Assembly (NCBI GenBank): GCA_945873955.1
Contig: CAMCFA010000006.1
Location: 1,759 to 65,758 of the forward strand
Direction: 5' to 3'
Length of the DNA: 64,000 nt
DNA from: an uncultured Clostridia bacterium
GTDB lineage: Bacteria > Bacillota > Clostridia > Oscillospirales > Ruminococcaceae
Shown here: piece by piece, positions 18,492 to 47,418 of the stretch
Position numbering within the stretch: the stretch's first letter is position 1
Layout of the letters: each line of letters opens with the position of its first letter
Program-made: the position numbers and the translations under genes
Notes under the pieces: generated by a model
Databases searched by the model: none
What the model saw: the letters and a program-made list of their open reading frames with translations, nothing else
What the model was told of the DNA's origin: nothing

Positions 18492-18666
18492 GGGCTATAC
18501 CGTACAATTACCGGCTGAAGCCTTTGCCGCACGATTGCTTGCATCTTGTCCGCCATCTTGCCCAAATTTCGCTTGACGGGCGAGAAGCCCGCCTGCGCTC
18601 AATTTGAACAAGCTGACGAACAATCTGACTGCGCAATCCCGCGACAATAATCGTACGGTATAGCCC
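18492..18666. repeat. 175-bp foldback (E3) within the predicted rpsB 5-prime leader
   Basis: Perfect 14-bp arms gggctataccgtac (18492-18505) / gtacggtatagccc (18653-18666). Central hairpin cgggc-gagaa-gcccg (18567-18581). The arms in between are roughly 60% self-complementary by eye. Confidence 0.75.
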
Positions 18667-22878: not shown

Positions 22879-22970
22879 TGGCGGAGAAAGAGGGATTTGA
22901 ACCCTCGCGCCGGTTTGAGCCGACCTACTCCCTTAGCAGGGGAGCCCCTTCACCACTTGGGTATTTCTCC
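22879..22970 (-). tRNA. tRNA-Ser (anticodon GCT) with a long variable arm and encoded CCA
   Basis: Minus strand: GGAGAAA acceptor pairing with TTTCTCC, anticodon loop CTGCTAA, T arm GGGTTCAAATCCC, 3-prime GCCA. 92 nt. Confidence 0.9.
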
Positions 22971-32807: not shown

Positions 32808-35042
32808 TTAAATCAGACGTATCTGATCAATGTCCTGATCTGTTGCCGTTCCCGCGGAGGGAATGGTCTTTATCCGCAGCGCTTCGATGTCCTTCACGCC
32901 GCTGTTTTCCGCGAGGTAAGCCCCCGCAAGCTCCGCTTTGGTAAGGCGCATTACCTGAACGCCCTGCGTATCTCTCGTGGTCTTAGGCAGCACCAGCGCC
33001 GTATTGAAGGTCAGCGCCTTGCCCGCCGAGGATTTCAGCACGAAATCTGCCTCGCCCTTTATGACGAACATAGCCACCAGTTCCGACAGGTCGGAATACG
33101 CATTGCCCAGCTTCTTGCGCTTGGTCTTGGTTTCGTAGCTGGAAAGCGGCACCTTGGCGCACTTGCCGTTCTTGAAGAAGGACACAAGCGTTTCGCTGTA
33201 ATCCTCCGTCACCGCCATGAAAACTATGCTCTCGCCGTCGTCGAAGTCCAGCTTTGCGGGAACGTAATCTCCCATAACGCTCGCCTTTGTTTCGTCGAAG
33301 TCGGTGCAGCGGGACTTGTAAACCTGGTGCTTGTCGGTGAAGAACAGCAGCTCTGCGCCGCCGTTCACCTCGCCGCTCCAAACGATCTCGTCGTTCTCTT
33401 TCAGCTTGTGCTGATTGCTCATGCGCAGCGACTGCGGCGTGATTTTCTTGAAATAGCCCTCCCGCGTGAGGAAGATGTTCACATTGGACAGCTTGACCGG
33501 CTCTTCCACCTCCGCTGCCTGCTCCTCCACGTCGTAGAGGAACATTGTGCGCCGCGGCTGACCGTATTTCTTGGATATCTCTTTCAGCTCATCGATAATT
33601 AGCTTGTTCACCCGGGCTTCGCTGCCGAGGATCTCCTCCATGTCGGCGATATCCTTTTCAAGCTGGTCGGTCTCCTCGGTGCGTTTGAGGATATATTCCC
33701 GGTTGATGTGACGCAGCTTTATCTCGGCAACGTACTCCGCCTGCGGCTCGTCAATGCCGAAGCCGATCATGAGGTTCGGAACTACCTCCGCTTCCTCGTC
33801 GGTCTCGCGAATGAGCTTTATCGCGTAGTCGATATCCAGCAGGATCTTTTTCAGACCGTACAGCAGGTGCAGCTTTTCCTTTTTCTTCTGCATATCGTAG
33901 GAAACGCGCCGCCGCACGCAGTCCCGCCGGAAATTCGTCCACTCGTTCAGTATCTCGTACACGCCCATTACCCGCGGCGTGCCGTTTATCAGTATGTTGA
34001 AGTTACAGTTGAAGTTGTCCTGCAAGGGGGTCAGCCGGAACAGCTTGTTCATCACCGCATCGGGATCCTGACCCTTTTTCAGGTCGAACGCCAGCCGCAG
34101 ACCGGACAGGTCTGTTTCGTCACGGACGTCGGAAATCTCTCGCAGCTTGTTGTCCTTGACCAGCTCCACCACCTTGTCGATTATCGCTTCTACCGTGGTG
34201 GTGGGAGGGATCTGCGTTACCTCTATGCAGCGGGCGTCCGGGTCGTAATTGTACACCGCGCGGACTTTCACAGCGCCCATTCCGGTGCGGTAGATCTTCT
34301 CCATTTCGGCTTCGTCGTAGACGATATAGCCGCCGCCGGGGAAATCCGGGCCTTTCAGCGTGGAGAGCGCGTTGTGCTCCGGGTCTTTCATCAGCGCTAT
34401 CGTGGTTTCGCAGATCTCGCTCAGATTGAAGGAGCATATATTGCTCGCCATAGATACGGCAAGACCGAAGTTGCTGTTCACCAGCACCGACGGGAATCTC
34501 ACCGGGAACAGGCTCGGCTCCAGCATGGTGTTGTCGTAGTTCGGCACCATGTCCACCGCGTCCTTGTCGATCTCGGCGAAAAGCTCGGCGCTTATCGGCT
34601 CCAGCTTAGCCTCGGTGTAACGGGACGCGGCGTATGCCATATCCCGTGAATACGCCTTGCCGAAGTTGCCCTTGCTGTCAACATAGGGGTGCAGCAGCGC
34701 TTCGTTTCCTCTTGCAAGGCGAACCATAGTTTCGTATATCGCGGCGTCGCCGTGGGGATTCAGCCGCATTGTCTGACCGACGATATTTGCGGACTTGGTG
34801 CGTCCGCCGGTCAGCAGTCCCATTTTGTACATGGTGTAAAGCAGCTTGCGGTGCGACGGCTTGAAGCCGTCTATCTCCGGCAGCGCACGGCTGACGATAA
34901 CGCTCATGGCGTAGGGCATGTAGTTTTCTTCAAGGGTGCTTACGATGTCCTTCTGCGCGACTATTCCGCTGCCCTCGATATACGCCTCGCCCATTGCCGG
35001 GCTGAGCCTCTTTGGCTGCTTTTTTGGGGTGTTTTTCTTCAA
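32808..35042 (-). CDS. Type IIA topoisomerase subunit A (divergent ParC/GyrA-family paralog)
   Basis: 744 aa. [28 protein letters not shown], active-site [10 protein letters not shown]. Shorter than GyrA and I saw no GyrA-box. TTG start after AAGGAG. Confidence 0.85.
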
Positions 35043-35055
35043 AGGTGTTTACTCC

Positions 35056-35246
35056 TTATACTATTTTCATTTCTCCCTATAGACTTTGTCTATAGGGAGA
35101 AACCAACCGCTTTGCGGTTGGTGCGGCGTAGCCGCTGAAAAGCCGTTCAATACTAATATCGTCAAAACCTGTGGTTTTGACAGCCGCCGATTCGGCGGCA
35201 ACTTCTTATAGACTTTGTCTATAAGAAGATTTGATATTAGTATTAT
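35056..35246 (+). repeat. Multi-hairpin intergenic repeat family, copy B (191 nt), filling the spacer between the topoisomerase B and A genes
   Basis: Six local hairpins plus the long-range pair aatactaatatc / gatattagtatt. The 3-prime end abuts the B-subunit stop (35247-35249). The 5-prime end overlaps the last two bases of the A-subunit RBS. Confidence 0.9.
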
Positions 35247-37232
35247 TTATGAAATATCAGCTTCTGCAAGATACTTGCTGCCATTTTCCTTGATGAACCG
35301 CTTGCGTCCCTCCAAATTATTGCCCAGCAGCACGTCGAACATCTCTCTGGTGGCTTCCGCGTCGCCGGGATTCACCCGGATAAGCCGGCGGGTCTCCGGG
35401 TTCATGGTGGTAAGGCTCATCATGTCCGGGTCGTTCTCGCCAAGACCTTTGCTTCGCTGAATGGTGTACTTCGTTTCGCCTATCATGCCGAGAATTTTCG
35501 TTTTTTCCGGCTCGGTGTATGCGAAATAGGTGCGCTCTTTTGTGGTTATTTCATACAGCGGGGACTCCGCAATGTAAACGTAGCCCTTTTCAATAAGCGT
35601 GGGGCAAAGCTCCTGTATCATGGTGAGGATAAGCGTTCTGATCTGAAAGCCGTCCTCGTCCGCATCGGTGCAGATAACGATTTTATTCCACCGCAGATTG
35701 TCAAGATTAAACGTGGAAAGCTGCTTGTTCGCCTTGGTTTTTACCTCAACGCCGCAACCCAGCACCTTTATCAGATTCGTGATTATCTCGCTCTTGAATA
35801 TCTTATCGTAGCTTGCTTTAAGGCAGTTCAGTATCTTACCTCTTACCGGAATGACCGCTTGGAACTCAGCGTCCCGCGCCAGCTTTACCGAACCCAGCGC
35901 CGAGTCGCCCTCCACGATATAGACCTCGCGGCGGGAAACGTCCTTGCTGCGGCAGTCCACGAACTTATCTATGCGGTTGGTGAGGTCTATCGTCCCGGTG
36001 AGCTTCTGGAGCGTGCTCTGGCGAACCTTGTCCGCGTTCTCGCGGGAGCGCTTGTTTATCAGCACCTGCGCGCCTATCTTCGCGGCTTCGTCCGGGTTTT
36101 CAAGGAAGTAGACCTCCAACTGGTGCTTCAGCCACTCGGTCATGGCGTCGGTGATGAACTCGTTGGTAACGGCTTTCTTGGTCTGGTTCTCGTAGCTTGC
36201 CTGCGTGGAAAAGTTTGAGGAGATGAACACCAGACAGTCCTCGACGTCCTCCCACTTTATGCCTTTTTCATTCTTGTTGTACTTGCCGCCGTTTTTGAGA
36301 TACCCGTCTATCTGGGACAGGAACGCCTTTTGCAGAGCCTTCTGCGGGCTGCCGCCGTGCTCCAGCCAGCTTGAATTGTGGTAATGCTCGATGAACTGCA
36401 CTTCCTTGCTGAATGTGAACGCAACGTTCATCAGCAGCTTGTACTCGTCCTTGTCCTCGCGGTCGCGTCCCTGCCGCTCCGCCGACCAGCTCTGGGGCGT
36501 GGTCATGGACTTGTCGCCGACTACCTCCATAAGGTAATCGCTGATTCCGTTCTCATAGCAGAATATCTGCGAGGTGAAAGTGCCGTCGTCTTTCAGACAT
36601 TTCAGCACCAGCTCCACGCCGTCGTTGACTATCGCCTGCCTGCGCAGGATATCCGCGAGGTATTCTTCCCCGATGTCGATATCGGTGAATACCTCCAGAT
36701 CCGGCTTCCAGTGTATCTTAGTGCCGGTGCTGCCGTCGCCCTTGGTCTTTTTGAAGCCGCGCTCGTCCTGCGTGACGTTGAAGCCCTTTTCGAACCGCAG
36801 GGAGTAATTCCACGTCCCGCGGCGGCTCTCGACCTCCATATATTCGCTGGCGAACTGCGTCGCGCAGAGTCCCAGACCGTTAAGACCCAGCGCAAAGGAG
36901 TAGTTTCCGCCGGAGTTGTTGTTGTACTTGCTGCCCGCGTAAAGCGTGCAGAACGCCAGCTCCCAGTTGTATTTATCCTCCGCCTTGTTGAAGTCTATCG
37001 GGATACCCCGCCCGAAGTCCTCGACGGTTATGGACTTATCCTCATGCAGCGTGATGATTATTCGCTTGCCGTAGCCCTCACGCGCCTCGTCGATAGAGTT
37101 CGAGATTATCTCAAAAACCGAGTGGCGGCAGCCGTCCACACTATCAGAGCCGAAAATAACTCCGGGGCGCAGCCGTACTTGATCCGGGCCTTTCAGCGAC
37201 ACGAGGTCGTTGTAATTGTTTTCCTTTGCCAT
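35247..37232 (-). CDS. Type IIA topoisomerase subunit B (divergent ParE/GyrB-family paralog)
   Basis: 661 aa from ATG 37232 (RBS AGGAGAG). GHKL ATPase EIISNSIDEA, Toprim YIVEGDSA, PVRGKILN. The ORF-track N-terminal extension is rejected. Confidence 0.85.
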   Translation of the reverse strand: MAKENNYNDLVSLKGPDQVRLRPGVIFGSDSVDGCRHSVFEIISNSIDEAREGYGKRIIITLHEDKSITVEDFGRGIPIDFNKAEDKYNWELAFCTLYAGSKYNNNSGGNYSFALGLNGLGLCATQFASEYMEVESRRGTWNYSLRFEKGFNVTQDERGFKKTKGDGSTGTKIHWKPDLEVFTDIDIGEEYLADILRRQAIVNDGVELVLKCLKDDGTFTSQIFCYENGISDYLMEVVGDKSMTTPQSWSAERQGRDREDKDEYKLLMNVAFTFSKEVQFIEHYHNSSWLEHGGSPQKALQKAFLSQIDGYLKNGGKYNKNEKGIKWEDVEDCLVFISSNFSTQASYENQTKKAVTNEFITDAMTEWLKHQLEVYFLENPDEAAKIGAQVLINKRSRENADKVRQSTLQKLTGTIDLTNRIDKFVDCRSKDVSRREVYIVEGDSALGSVKLARDAEFQAVIPVRGKILNCLKASYDKIFKSEIITNLIKVLGCGVEVKTKANKQLSTFNLDNLRWNKIVICTDADEDGFQIRTLILTMIQELCPTLIEKGYVYIAESPLYEITTKERTYFAYTEPEKTKILGMIGETKYTIQRSKGLGENDPDMMSLTTMNPETRRLIRVNPGDAEATREMFDVLLGNNLEGRKRFIKENGSKYLAEADIS

Positions 37233-37566
37233 ATATCTCTCCTGTATTTTGTGCGGCGAATAAGCATATAACCGCATTATCTTCTTTAGTATACCACATT
37301 CTGATAAAAATTGCAAGGGATTTTTCCAGCGCAGCGCGAGGGATAACAACGTACATATCTCCTGCCTATTATATGTGCAGTATAAACAAAAAACAGCCCG
37401 GCGCACTTGATTCCCGCCGGTGTGTGATGTATACTGAAATATGTGCGGAAGCTACGTTTATCCGCCGCAAGATCGCGAAATGCTCAAATTATCAAGACAA
37501 AACGGAAATTTCCTGCTATAATACAAGTGTAAGCTTACAAAATGCACCACAAGGGGGGGGACAGCC

Positions 37567-38449: not shown

Positions 38450-38609
38450 TTATACTATTTCCTAATCAACATATAGCCAAAGTCTATATGTTGATCCCAC
38501 CGCAAAGCGGTGGGCGCGGCGAAGCCGCAGGAAAGCCGTTCAATACTAATTCTGTCAAAACCAAAGGTTTTGACTAGCCGCCTTAAGGTGATTAAGAATT
38601 AGTATTATA
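38450..38609 (+). repeat. Multi-hairpin intergenic repeat family, copy C (160 nt, 30-nt internal deletion)
   Basis: Collinear with copies B and D, but lacks the 3-prime half of hairpin 5 and most of hairpin 6, retaining only the last 6 nt of its 3-prime arm (aaggtg). Confidence 0.9.
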
Positions 38610-45750: not shown

Positions 45751-45779
45751 TTGACGGAAGCGGTAAAAAATGATAGAAT
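45751..45779 (+). promoter_or_regulatory. Sigma-A promoter upstream of the 34-codon small ORF
   Basis: TTGACG, 17 nt, TAGAAT. Confidence 0.6.
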
Positions 45780-45810: not shown

Positions 45811-45915
45811 ATGAACAGAACAACCAAAAGGATCATCACCGAACTCATGAAAATGGCAGGGTCAGTCGCGCTGATAATACTCTGGTCGGCGGAGCTTACG
45901 CGTATTCTGGGGTGA
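45811..45915 (+). CDS. Candidate 34-aa small hydrophobic protein
   Basis: MNRTTKRIITELMKMAGSVALIILWSAELTRILG. GGAGGT RBS 7 nt upstream of the ATG and its own promoter. Below the ORF-track length cutoff. Confidence 0.4.
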   Translation: MNRTTKRIITELMKMAGSVALIILWSAELTRILG

Positions 45916-45950: not shown

Positions 45951-45979
45951 TTGACAAACCGCGAAAAATATATTAAAAT
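45951..45979 (+). promoter_or_regulatory. Sigma-A promoter firing into repeat copy D and dapL
   Basis: TTGACA, 17 nt, TAAAAT. Predicted TSS ~45986-45988, 3-5 nt before the repeat 5-prime boundary. Confidence 0.65.
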
Positions 45980-45990
45980 ATATGTTGGAT

Positions 45991-46181
45991 TTATACTATT
46001 TCCTTATCAACTTATAGACAAAGTCTATAGGTTGAACCAACCGCCAAGGCGGTTGGAGCGACTAAGCCGCAGGAAAGCCGTTCAATACTGATTCTGTCAA
46101 AACCCCTGGTTTTGACTTGCCGCCTTTAGGCGGCTCACCTTATAGACTTCGTCTATAAGGTGATTAAGAATTAGTATTATA
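45991..46181 (+). repeat. Multi-hairpin intergenic repeat family, copy D (191 nt), forming the predicted dapL 5-prime leader
   Basis: Full-length copy collinear with B. Ends 31 nt before the dapL ATG. Confidence 0.9.
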
Positions 46182-46212
46182 TCAAATCTCATAACAGAAA
46201 GGACAAAAGAAC

Positions 46213-47418
46213 ATGGCAAAGCTGAACGAAAACTTTTTCAAGCTGAAAAAGAACTACCTTTTTATTGATATCGCAAAGAGGATAAAGGCGTACACCGCCG
46301 CTCACCCCGACGCAAAGCTCATCAGAATGGGCATTGGCGACGTTACGCAGCCCCTTGCTCCCGTCGTTGTTGATGCAATGGTGAAGGCTGCAAAGGAAAT
46401 GGGCGTCAAGGAGACCTTCCGCGGCTATGAGGACAGCGGCGCCGGCTACGACTTCCTGCGCAACGCAGTCTCCGGCTACTACAAGTGCTTCGGCGCAGAC
46501 GTTGACCCGGCGGTAATCCACATCAGCGACGGCGCAAAGAGCGACTGCGGCAACATTATCGACATCTTCGGCGCAGGCAACACCGTTGTAGTCACCGACC
46601 CGGCTTACCCGGTCTATGTTGACAGCAACATCATGAGCGGCAACGAGGTGGTCTATGCCAACTCTACCGAGGAGAACGGCTTCGCCGCAATGCCCCCGAA
46701 GGACATAAAGGCTGACCTCATCTACCTCTGCTCCCCGAACAACCCCACCGGCTCTGTCTACACAAAGGCGCAGCTTAAGGAATGGGTGGACTACGCGCTT
46801 GCCAACGACGCTGTTATCATCTTTGACGCAGCTTATGAAGCGTTCATCACCGAACCCGATCTGCCCAGAAGCATTTACCTCATTGAGGGCGCGAAGAAGT
46901 GCGCTATTGAGATATGCTCCCTGTCCAAGACCGCCGGCTTCACCGGAACACGCTGCGGCTACACCGTCGTTCCGGACGAGCTTGTGCAGAAGAACAGCAG
47001 CGGCGAGGAGGTAAAGATCGCCGACCTGTGGAACAGACGTCAGGGCAGCAAGTTCAACGGCGTTTCCTATCCCGTTCAGCGCGCGGCGGAGGCTGTGTTC
47101 ACCCCGGAGGGACAGGCGCAGACAAAGGCGACTATCGCTTACTATCAGGAGAATGCCCGCATGATCGCAAAGACCTGCGACGAGCTTGGTATCAAGTACA
47201 CCGGCGGCATTAACTCCCCATACATCTGGCTTAAGTCCCCGAACGGCATGGATTCTTGGGCGTTCTTCGACTACCTGCTGAATGAAATTCAGGTTGTCGG
47301 CACTCCCGGCGCAGGCTTCGGCGCGAACGGCGACGGCTGGTTCAGACTGACCGCGTTCAGCACTCACGAGCTTACTGCGGAGGCTATGGAGAGGTTTAAG
47401 AAGCTGTTCAAGAAGTAA
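46213..47418 (+). CDS. dapL: LL-diaminopimelate aminotransferase
   Basis: 401 aa. MAKLNENFFKLKKNYLF N-terminus and PLP-Lys region SLSKTAGFTGTRCGY. Confidence 0.9.
   Translation: MAKLNENFFKLKKNYLFIDIAKRIKAYTAAHPDAKLIRMGIGDVTQPLAPVVVDAMVKAAKEMGVKETFRGYEDSGAGYDFLRNAVSGYYKCFGADVDPAVIHISDGAKSDCGNIIDIFGAGNTVVVTDPAYPVYVDSNIMSGNEVVYANSTEENGFAAMPPKDIKADLIYLCSPNNPTGSVYTKAQLKEWVDYALANDAVIIFDAAYEAFITEPDLPRSIYLIEGAKKCAIEICSLSKTAGFTGTRCGYTVVPDELVQKNSSGEEVKIADLWNRRQGSKFNGVSYPVQRAAEAVFTPEGQAQTKATIAYYQENARMIAKTCDELGIKYTGGINSPYIWLKSPNGMDSWAFFDYLLNEIQVVGTPGAGFGANGDGWFRLTAFSTHELTAEAMERFKKLFKK

Follow-up and report, generated by a model that had tools for sequence, protein, structure and literature searches.

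The dapL locus raises the question of why the mRNA of an essential gene would begin with a long, strongly folding repeat, and whether that repeat is a dedicated part of the leader or an insertion that the mRNA carries along. The repeat occurs four times (copies A, B, C and D, all on the same strand) in the window, by which we mean the whole stretch of 64,000 nucleotides that was analysed, and copy D lies between the dapL promoter and the dapL ribosome binding site (RBS). An earlier note on this DNA had proposed that copy D might act as a cis-regulatory leader, a stabiliser or a processed small RNA. Based on the sequence comparisons reported here, copy D is probably a MITE-like mobile insertion carried passively in the dapL 5' UTR, a reading to which we assign a probability of about 0.78.

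The dapL promoter and its transcript

The dapL gene (46213-47418, + strand) encodes an LL-diaminopimelate aminotransferase of 401 aa, identified by TIGR03542 (511.7 bits, cutoff 364.7) and by the Pfam domain Aminotran_1_2, and its RBS, AGAAAGGA (46196-46203, +), was read from the sequence and aligned with the RBS of orthologs. A scan located a sigma-70-type site, TTGACA-17-TAAAAT (45951-45979, + strand), with 11 of 12 positions matched, just upstream of the repeat where the earlier note had placed it. The -35 hexamer TTGACA spans 45951-45956, and TTGACAAA does not vary among the upstream regions of six dapL orthologs; the -10 hexamer TAAAAT spans 45974-45979 after a 17-nt spacer, with the same spacing in L070, L071, L074 and L076 and with TTTAAT in L075. 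Transcription is predicted to start at 45985-45988 (+), the usual 6-9 nt after the -10. The end of the promoter and the start of copy D are 11 nt apart, and given the predicted start copy D would begin 3-6 nt into the dapL transcript.

Copy D, a 189-nt element of the form TTA|TACTA...TAGTA|TTA, occupies 45991-46179 (+) and so fills nearly the whole dapL leader, ending 33 nt before the ATG at 46213. Limits of approximately 45991-46181 had been proposed; the start was confirmed, but the profile places the end at 46179, giving 33 rather than 31 nt to the ATG. No further promoter-like or terminator-like site was found on either strand of 45980-46212, in agreement with the claim that no second promoter precedes the ATG, and copies B, C and D have unrelated flanks, which bears out the claim that the promoter lies outside the repeat. 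Since the promoter is conserved in dapL orthologs, as described below, the dapL mRNA very probably carries copy D, and this part of the earlier proposal stands.

Further upstream, a 34-codon ORF (MNRTTKRIITELMKMAGSVALIILWSAELTRILG) at 45811-45915 is preceded by a GGAGG ribosome-binding site, and a TG-extended promoter-like site of its own lies at 45751-45779. The ORF stops 35 nt 5' of the dapL promoter, with no terminator in the gap.

Anatomy of copy D

The limits of copy D were set by a profile built from 55 copies of what we call family 1; copy D matches profile positions 1-189 (nhmmer, E = 8e-54; alignments A1 and A2). The transcribed strand folds into six hairpins and two closing stems at -93 kcal/mol (z = -10.8), and none of 200 shuffled sequences was as stable. 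The element has a GC content of 42%, compared to 54% for the window.

The features of copy D are all given on the + strand. The left terminal inverted repeat (TIR; 45991-46033) was recognised when the reverse-complemented 3' end was aligned locally with the 5' end; it consists of TTATACTATTTCCTTATC followed by hairpin 1 (AACTTATAGAC-AAA-GTCTATAGGTT). Within it, TTTCC (45999-46003) pairs with GGAAA at 46072-46076 and provides the 5' strand of the closing stem of hairpins 1-3 (helix 1, in which 3 of 5 pairs change on both sides). Hairpin 2 (CCAACCGCC-AA-GGCGGTTGG, 46037-46056; helix 5) shows compensatory changes such as CCCACCGC/GCGGTGGG versus CGCCGTAT/ATACGGCG. According to the pairing check, hairpin 3 (GCGACTAAGCCGC, 46058-46070) is damaged in copy D by one A·C and one A·A mispair. 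An internal, third TIR-like copy (AATACTGATTCT, 46084-46095) pairs with 46167-46178 and closes hairpins 4-6 (helix 7, with 4 pairs changing on both sides). Hairpin 4 (GTCAAAACC-CCT-GGTTTTGAC, 46096-46116) has a loop that flips between copies, as seen in the loop-variant test discussed below, and hairpin 5 (GCCGCC-TTTA-GGCGGC, 46119-46134) was defined from the fold and the alignment. The right TIR (46136-46179) consists of hairpin 6 (CACCTTATAGAC-TTC-GTCTATAAGGTG) followed by ATTAAGAATTAGTATTA, and 8 of the 13 pairs of its helix 9 change on both sides.

The 5' end aligns with the reverse-complemented 3' end over approximately 40 nt (ATACTAtTTCcTtATCAaCTTATAGAC-NNN-GTCTATAgG), and the TIR is imperfect in copies B and D. 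The sequence AATACTAATTC is present as the third, internal copy, whose pairing partner is the 3' end, and hairpins 1 and 6 share a TATAGAC-NNN-GTCTATA core.

The dapL locus in relatives

DNA was fetched around the closest DapL homologs and aligned (alignment A3). Five lineages with 88-90% protein identity (L070, L071-73, L074, L075 and L076) have the same promoter, then a short leader of ~30-60 nt (a length that uses the same start prediction as in the window), an RBS and the ATG; TTGACAAA and the -10 are kept in all five at equal spacing. No copy of the element precedes dapL in L070-L076 or in L067/L068, and neither a riboswitch nor any other Rfam family was found in the ortholog leaders. A lysine riboswitch, nothing, or the same element had been named as the possible contents of these leaders; the five lineages have the short leader with neither element nor riboswitch. 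Because the orthologs keep the promoter without the element, this comparison indicates that the dapL promoter is genuine and ancestral and that the insertion of copy D is specific to the lineage of the window.

The earlier note had held that its proposal would be undermined by orthologous loci showing a recent, strain-specific insertion with no effect on dapL expression. A lineage-specific insertion is what we found, but it is not brand new, as copy D differs from its subfamily consensus at 12 positions and its hairpin 3 is damaged. In the 'empty' leader of L076, a 90%-identical ortholog, the sequence ACTAATTCC-ATA-GGAAATA (around 880-910) resembles the inner halves of both TIRs. It may be the relic of a deleted copy, in which case the dapL insertion is older than assumed.

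In the closest relative (L067/L068, 93% identity), a different short dispersed repeat lies upstream of the RBS, and the contigs end inside it. This same repeat is found in the window at 18493-18566, where it is unrelated to copy D, and has 84-94% identical stretches in L005, L018, L039, L041, L047 and L061. As the upstream region of L067/L068 is filled by the repeat of 18493-18566, the dapL leader has been struck independently by two repeat families in related lineages.

Copies in the window and spread of the family

Three further copies lie in the window, all on the + strand. Repeat comparison showed that copy A (1-36), which is cut by the window start, retains hairpin 6 and the right end only. 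Copy B (35056-35245) is full length and, by profile and domain search, sits in the spacer between a gyrB-like and a gyrA-like gene, antisense to both. Copy C (38450-38607), found with the profile between convergent genes, has an internal deletion of 31 nt in which half of hairpin 5 and the whole of hairpin 6 are lost. The genes that flank copy B, gyrB-like at 35247-37406 and gyrA-like at 32808-35042, are both on the minus strand, and gyrB-gyrA transcription probably reads through copy B in the antisense orientation.

One scan of representative genomes, using a search pattern from the centre of the element, gave 66 exact-pattern matches in ~14 gut Oscillospiraceae/Clostridia MAGs, 17 of these loci coming from one MAG; in all, the family-1 copies number 66 + 3 + 3. 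When copies were aligned with their flanks, conservation began exactly at TTATACTA and ended exactly after TAGTATTA, and the sequence beyond was unrelated. All 69 copies examined are intergenic. Judged from approximate ORF starts, copies lie between co-directional genes (19 antisense and 8 sense), convergent genes (16) and divergent genes (8), and 24 of the 69 are ≤60 nt upstream of an ORF start (7 sense, 17 antisense). In many cases the TAA stop codon of a neighbouring ORF is the flanking TTA read on the opposite strand. The genes adjoining the copies are unrelated to one another.

Because the window start and at least 9 fetched loci are cut at contig ends inside a copy, the repeat evidently breaks short-read assemblies. 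No match to the element was found by blastn against plasmids and phages or by a TIR scan of viral contigs. We found no description of the family in the literature searched, and it seems to be undescribed, though of a known (MITE-like) sort.

Element ends, related families and target sites

A metagenome scan was run with the terminal sequence alone. This recovered few family-1 copies, and most matches belonged to a second family of 159-176 nt, which has the same ends as family 1 (ATACTAATTCTTGATCAACCTATAGAC...GTCTATAGAACGATCAAGAATTAGTAT) around an unrelated core. Family 2 is found in human-gut metagenomes (L079-L102, e.g., L089 7643-7801 and L096 6575-6733) and in a MAG that also holds family 1 (L052 3075-3234). 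A third family of ~100 nt (L090 5075-5175, L092 7673-7773, L095 9056-9158) forms one long hairpin, and the scan also gave a 94-nt form (L093 895-988) and forms of 226-236 nt (L092 10164-10399); all have the common ends ATACTAATT...AATTAGTAT. In L080 and L090 a family-3 copy directly adjoins a family-2 copy. Common ends with exchangeable cores are the look of non-autonomous elements served by one transposase.

An autonomous element or transposase gene with these ends was found neither in the window nor in the 104 loci, the PLSDB plasmids, the phages or the viral contigs. Long-distance and unpaired TIR matches were considered as the parent element, and turned out to belong to a third short family or to have arisen by chance. 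TIR pairs are spaced 185 nt apart in most full-length copies, and the variants range from 94 to 236 nt, which leaves no space for an ORF. When ORFs of at least 150 aa from 102 loci were clustered, dapL was the only multi-copy ORF.

With respect to the features used to define MITEs (PMC10969869, section 2.1; PMC3184786), the element is smaller than 500 bp, has TIRs and a stable fold, contains no transposase ORF, is intergenic and multi-copy, and has filled and empty sites; a related autonomous IS with matching TIRs was not found in the sequences searched. With its two multi-stem domains, the structure of family 1 is more elaborate than a typical MITE.

Filled and empty sites could be paired at the dapL locus, in L047/L041 and in L096/L103. 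The last pair is the sole near-clean empty site, and lies in T-rich sequence: L096 reads ...TTTTT-TTA-[element]-TTA-TTTAGGG and L103 reads ...TTTTT-TTA-TTTAGGG, with flanks 98% identical. L047 (filled) and L041 (unfilled) have flanks 92-96% identical, and extra indels at the junction led us to reject this pair as a clean empty site. In L103 (570-1333), ~760 nt that are extra relative to L096 (6733-6760) lie beside the unoccupied site. Their boundary is marked by an inverted copy of 72 nt that both loci have downstream, and this difference, which is unrelated to the element, is a further structural polymorphism of the same intergenic spot.

Of 46 family-1 copies, 44 are flanked by TTA...TTA; the flanks are TGA...TGA in L010 (with the ends written TACTA...TAGTA). 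Copies of families 2 and 3 are flanked by TAA...TAA (9 copies) or TTA...TTA (7 copies). These flanks probably represent, judging from the aligned junctions, a 2-3 bp (T)TA target duplication. The Correia elements of Neisseria are flanked by a duplicated TA. A flank repeat longer by 1 bp was rejected, as 24 of 46 flanks agree at the added position and ~19 would be expected to by chance. The central base of the flank, which is the sole non-palindromic one, is identical and not complementary on the two sides. Target duplication is not proven, because the orientation of the flank is always tied to that of the element and the outer bases are palindromic; the coupling could instead mean a one-base end asymmetry, a recombination core, a strand-specific mechanism, or that the flank is part of the element.

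The coupling is also one of the points in favour of a single-stranded DNA or recombination origin, under which the repeat would belong with REP/BIME-like or IS200/IS605-derived (PATE-like) elements and be acted on by a Y1/HUH enzyme at hairpins 1 and 6, or would move by site-specific recombination at a TTA core, in either case without a cut-and-paste DDE transposase. The family is, like those elements, hairpin-centred with maintained stems and might use a single-strand mechanism; hairpins 1 and 6 carry the common core, the trinucleotide flank is fixed in orientation relative to the element, and there is a mild bias against gene direction (19 versus 8). The true TIRs, however, run beyond the hairpins: the inverted repeat is ~40 nt and includes sequence outside them. 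REPs are ~35 nt, and to our knowledge neither REPs nor the ends of IS200/IS605 have long TIRs extending beyond their hairpins, and IS200/IS605-derived elements lack long TIRs and flanking duplications. Moreover, both orientations occur among copies on one 37-kb contig (L013, L054, L055), no RAYT or TnpA gene was noticed near the copies in an informal look at the neighbouring genes, and the coupling is accounted for just as well by a one-base end asymmetry and a palindromic TA target acting together. We therefore regard this origin as quite improbable.

RNA structure or DNA palindromes

Pairing is strongly maintained across the family. Over 48 distinct copies, standard pairs fill 97.7% of the cells, compared to 37-46% when the partners are slid, and in 29 of 59 pairs both partners change; none of 500 shuffles reached any of these measures. 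The covarying stems include those that close hairpins 1-3 (TTTCC/GGAAA) and hairpins 4-6. In alignment A2 the columns AGCCGTTCAATACT and GTCAAAAC do not vary, but only since the search pattern demanded them, and the stem of hairpin 4 was likewise fixed; in the copies found by their ends (L077, L083 and L087) these columns remain similar while showing some differences, and covariation is seen in hairpin 4.

Such extensive covariation, the strong and significant fold, and the position in the 5' UTR of a lysine-pathway gene would be consistent with structured noncoding RNA genes or riboregulators of one orientation, copy D being a dapL-specific cis-regulatory leader. If RNA of one strand had been selected, that strand would be expected to tolerate G·U wobbles, and the earlier note had placed the dapL mRNA on the wobble-tolerant strand. 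This was not borne out, as the 48 copies contain 29 G·T and 26 A·C mispairs, with Watson-Crick pairs in 96.7% of cells, and in copy D alone the mispairs comprise 2 G·T, 1 A·C and 1 A·A. The mean fold energies of the two strands are -97.4 and -98.3 kcal/mol, and the forward strand is the more stable in 14 of 48 copies only.

The loops of hairpin 4 are informative in this regard. Of 17 loop variants, 12 form reverse-complement pairs (ACA/TGT, GCA/TGC, GTA/TAC, ATA/TAT, AAG/CTT and AAA/TTT), which none of 5000 random sets did, and AAA/TTT loop variants also occur in hairpins 1, 2 and 6. Reverse-complement loops indicate palindrome inversion at the DNA level, and are not expected from selection on RNA. 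Template switching within palindromes would likewise give back perfect arms and in this way mimic compensatory change, as what is established about quasi-palindrome mutagenesis suggests. Because the mispairs are symmetric, the strands equally stable and the loops inverted, selection on RNA of one orientation is disfavoured, and the covariation signal is DNA-like.

Other data agree with this conclusion. At the gathering score, Rfam matched nothing on the element, and its sole match in the window is a tRNA at 22882-22970; with E up to 10, the sole match to the element is a CRISPR-DR model at 17 bits, below its gathering score of 50, and no family was thereby assigned. No promoter or terminator was found inside copy D or a consensus copy in either orientation, a result that fits the presence of the element inside operons such as gyrB-gyrA. 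Outward promoters at the element ends were rejected, since the sole match uses a -10 in the flank of one locus. Copies occur in both orientations to their neighbours, have a sense-oriented downstream gene in only 16 of the 51 cases in which both neighbours were called, adjoin unrelated genes and are absent from dapL orthologs. The element thus shows none of the marks of a leader or riboswitch (association with a gene, strand-specific covariation, a curated RNA family), and nor does it have a promoter or terminator of its own at a conserved distance, as an independent small-RNA gene would. A family of RNA regulators is, in our judgement, highly improbable and the least likely of the explanations considered here. 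The lysine riboswitch and other amino-acid leaders share with copy D a place in the 5' UTR of a lysine/DAP-pathway gene, but the element, unlike them, is not conserved with the gene, matches no Rfam family, is multi-copy beside unrelated genes and lacks strand-specific covariation.

Possible effect of copy D on dapL expression

The predicted dapL mRNA was folded with and without the element. Averaged across the RBS and the start codon, the unpaired probability was 0.61 in both cases, and masking of the RBS by the element was rejected on this ground. A dedicated cis-regulatory, stabilising or small-RNA role, as the earlier note had suggested, is not supported, given the absence of the element from ortholog leaders, the unrelated neighbours in all orientations, the lack of a promoter or terminator of its own, and the unchanged RBS accessibility. 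An acquired effect of copy D on dapL mRNA processing or stability is nevertheless possible.

In its stronger form, such an effect would mean that the insertion has been co-opted, that copy D alters the fate of the dapL transcript through RNase III cleavage or decay from the 5' end, and that it sets the expression level in this lineage. Transcription of copy D from the conserved promoter is almost certain on sequence grounds, it has perfect stems of 12-13 bp in a very stable fold, and it has been kept long enough to collect 12 substitutions without deletion. There is also a precedent, since RNase III cleaves a Correia element located just past the mtrCDE promoter, and expression is modulated by that element (PMC10969869). 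Against co-option, no ortholog needs the element, predicted RBS accessibility is unchanged, hairpin 3 of copy D is decaying, and the first stem (P1) would come after ~15 nt of single strand, which is not known to be the arrangement of 5' stabilisers. Among the UTR-borne bcr1-3 repeats of B. cereus, moreover, only bcr3 was correlated with mRNA decay rate (PMC3446304). We consider co-option unlikely, though it is the strongest of the competing explanations.

A broader version can be put forward tentatively, and appears more doubtful still: the hairpin-ended modules might be moved by an unrecognised strand- or orientation-specific mechanism, with copies inserted just past promoters recruited as modules of RNA processing or stability by which essential genes (dapL, and gyrB-gyrA in the case of copy B) are retuned in gut Oscillospiraceae.

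The passenger reading that we prefer would account for the locus as follows. A non-autonomous, non-coding 189-nt element, multi-copy in a clade of gut Oscillospiraceae, would have inserted at a (T)TA site in the short ancestral dapL 5' UTR, a few bases past the start point, its hairpin-bearing ends (~30-40 nt, shared among the families) presumably being recognised by a transposase supplied in trans. The dapL gene would still be transcribed from its conserved promoter, the mRNA bearing copy D as a passenger that probably forms a self-contained fold, with no change in RBS accessibility. Maintenance of the palindromic modules may take place at the DNA level, through the needs of transposition together with template switching.

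Comparison with known repeat families

The closest parallels are with other small repeats that are co-transcribed with genes. The Correia elements (CREE/nemis) of Neisseria are, like the family described here, small non-coding MITEs with TIRs, present at many intergenic sites and co-transcribed with their neighbours (PMC10969869). The copy at mtrCDE lies immediately downstream of the promoter, the same arrangement as that of copy D (PMC10969869). They differ in their unrelated sequence, proteobacterial host, own promoters and IHF site, and in forming one long hairpin rather than six in two domains.

The bcr1-bcr3 repeats of the Bacillus cereus group are also found in a Firmicute, are ~155 bp and MITE-like, occupy non-conserved positions, have flanking direct repeats, show compensatory changes that keep a cruciform-like fold, and are frequent in 5' or 3' UTRs or operons (PMC3184786, PMC3446304). 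Their sequence is unrelated, however, the direct repeats of bcr1 are 5 bp compared to 2-3 bp here, they have two stem-loops rather than six, and their hosts are Bacillales rather than Oscillospiraceae. The ERIC/IRU, RUP, BOX and SPRITE repeats are similarly intergenic, palindromic and transcribed within mRNAs, with some orientation-dependent effects (PMC10969869), but have no sequence similarity to the element, which has no Rfam match; BOX is modular in another way, and SPRITE is terminator-like whereas the element lacks a terminator.

Implications

The explanation of copy D is an ordinary one, and what is unusual are features of the family, namely shared ends with different cores, the flip-flop of loops and the orientation-coupled flanks. 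Recognising copy D as MITE-like keeps a strongly folding dapL 5' UTR from being annotated as a riboswitch or small RNA. Loop flip-flop and the lack of a G·U excess provide a simple test that separates maintenance of DNA palindromes from selection on RNA structure when covariation looks convincing. The repeats that break assemblies could serve as strain markers. For uncultured gut Oscillospiraceae, the data reveal an apparently undescribed MITE-like superfamily of at least three families with common ends. The dapL locus itself is a natural experiment, in which an essential gene of the peptidoglycan/lysine pathway has a leader structure of 189 nt and approximately -90 kcal/mol in one lineage, and leaders of ~30-60 nt behind the same promoter in close relatives.
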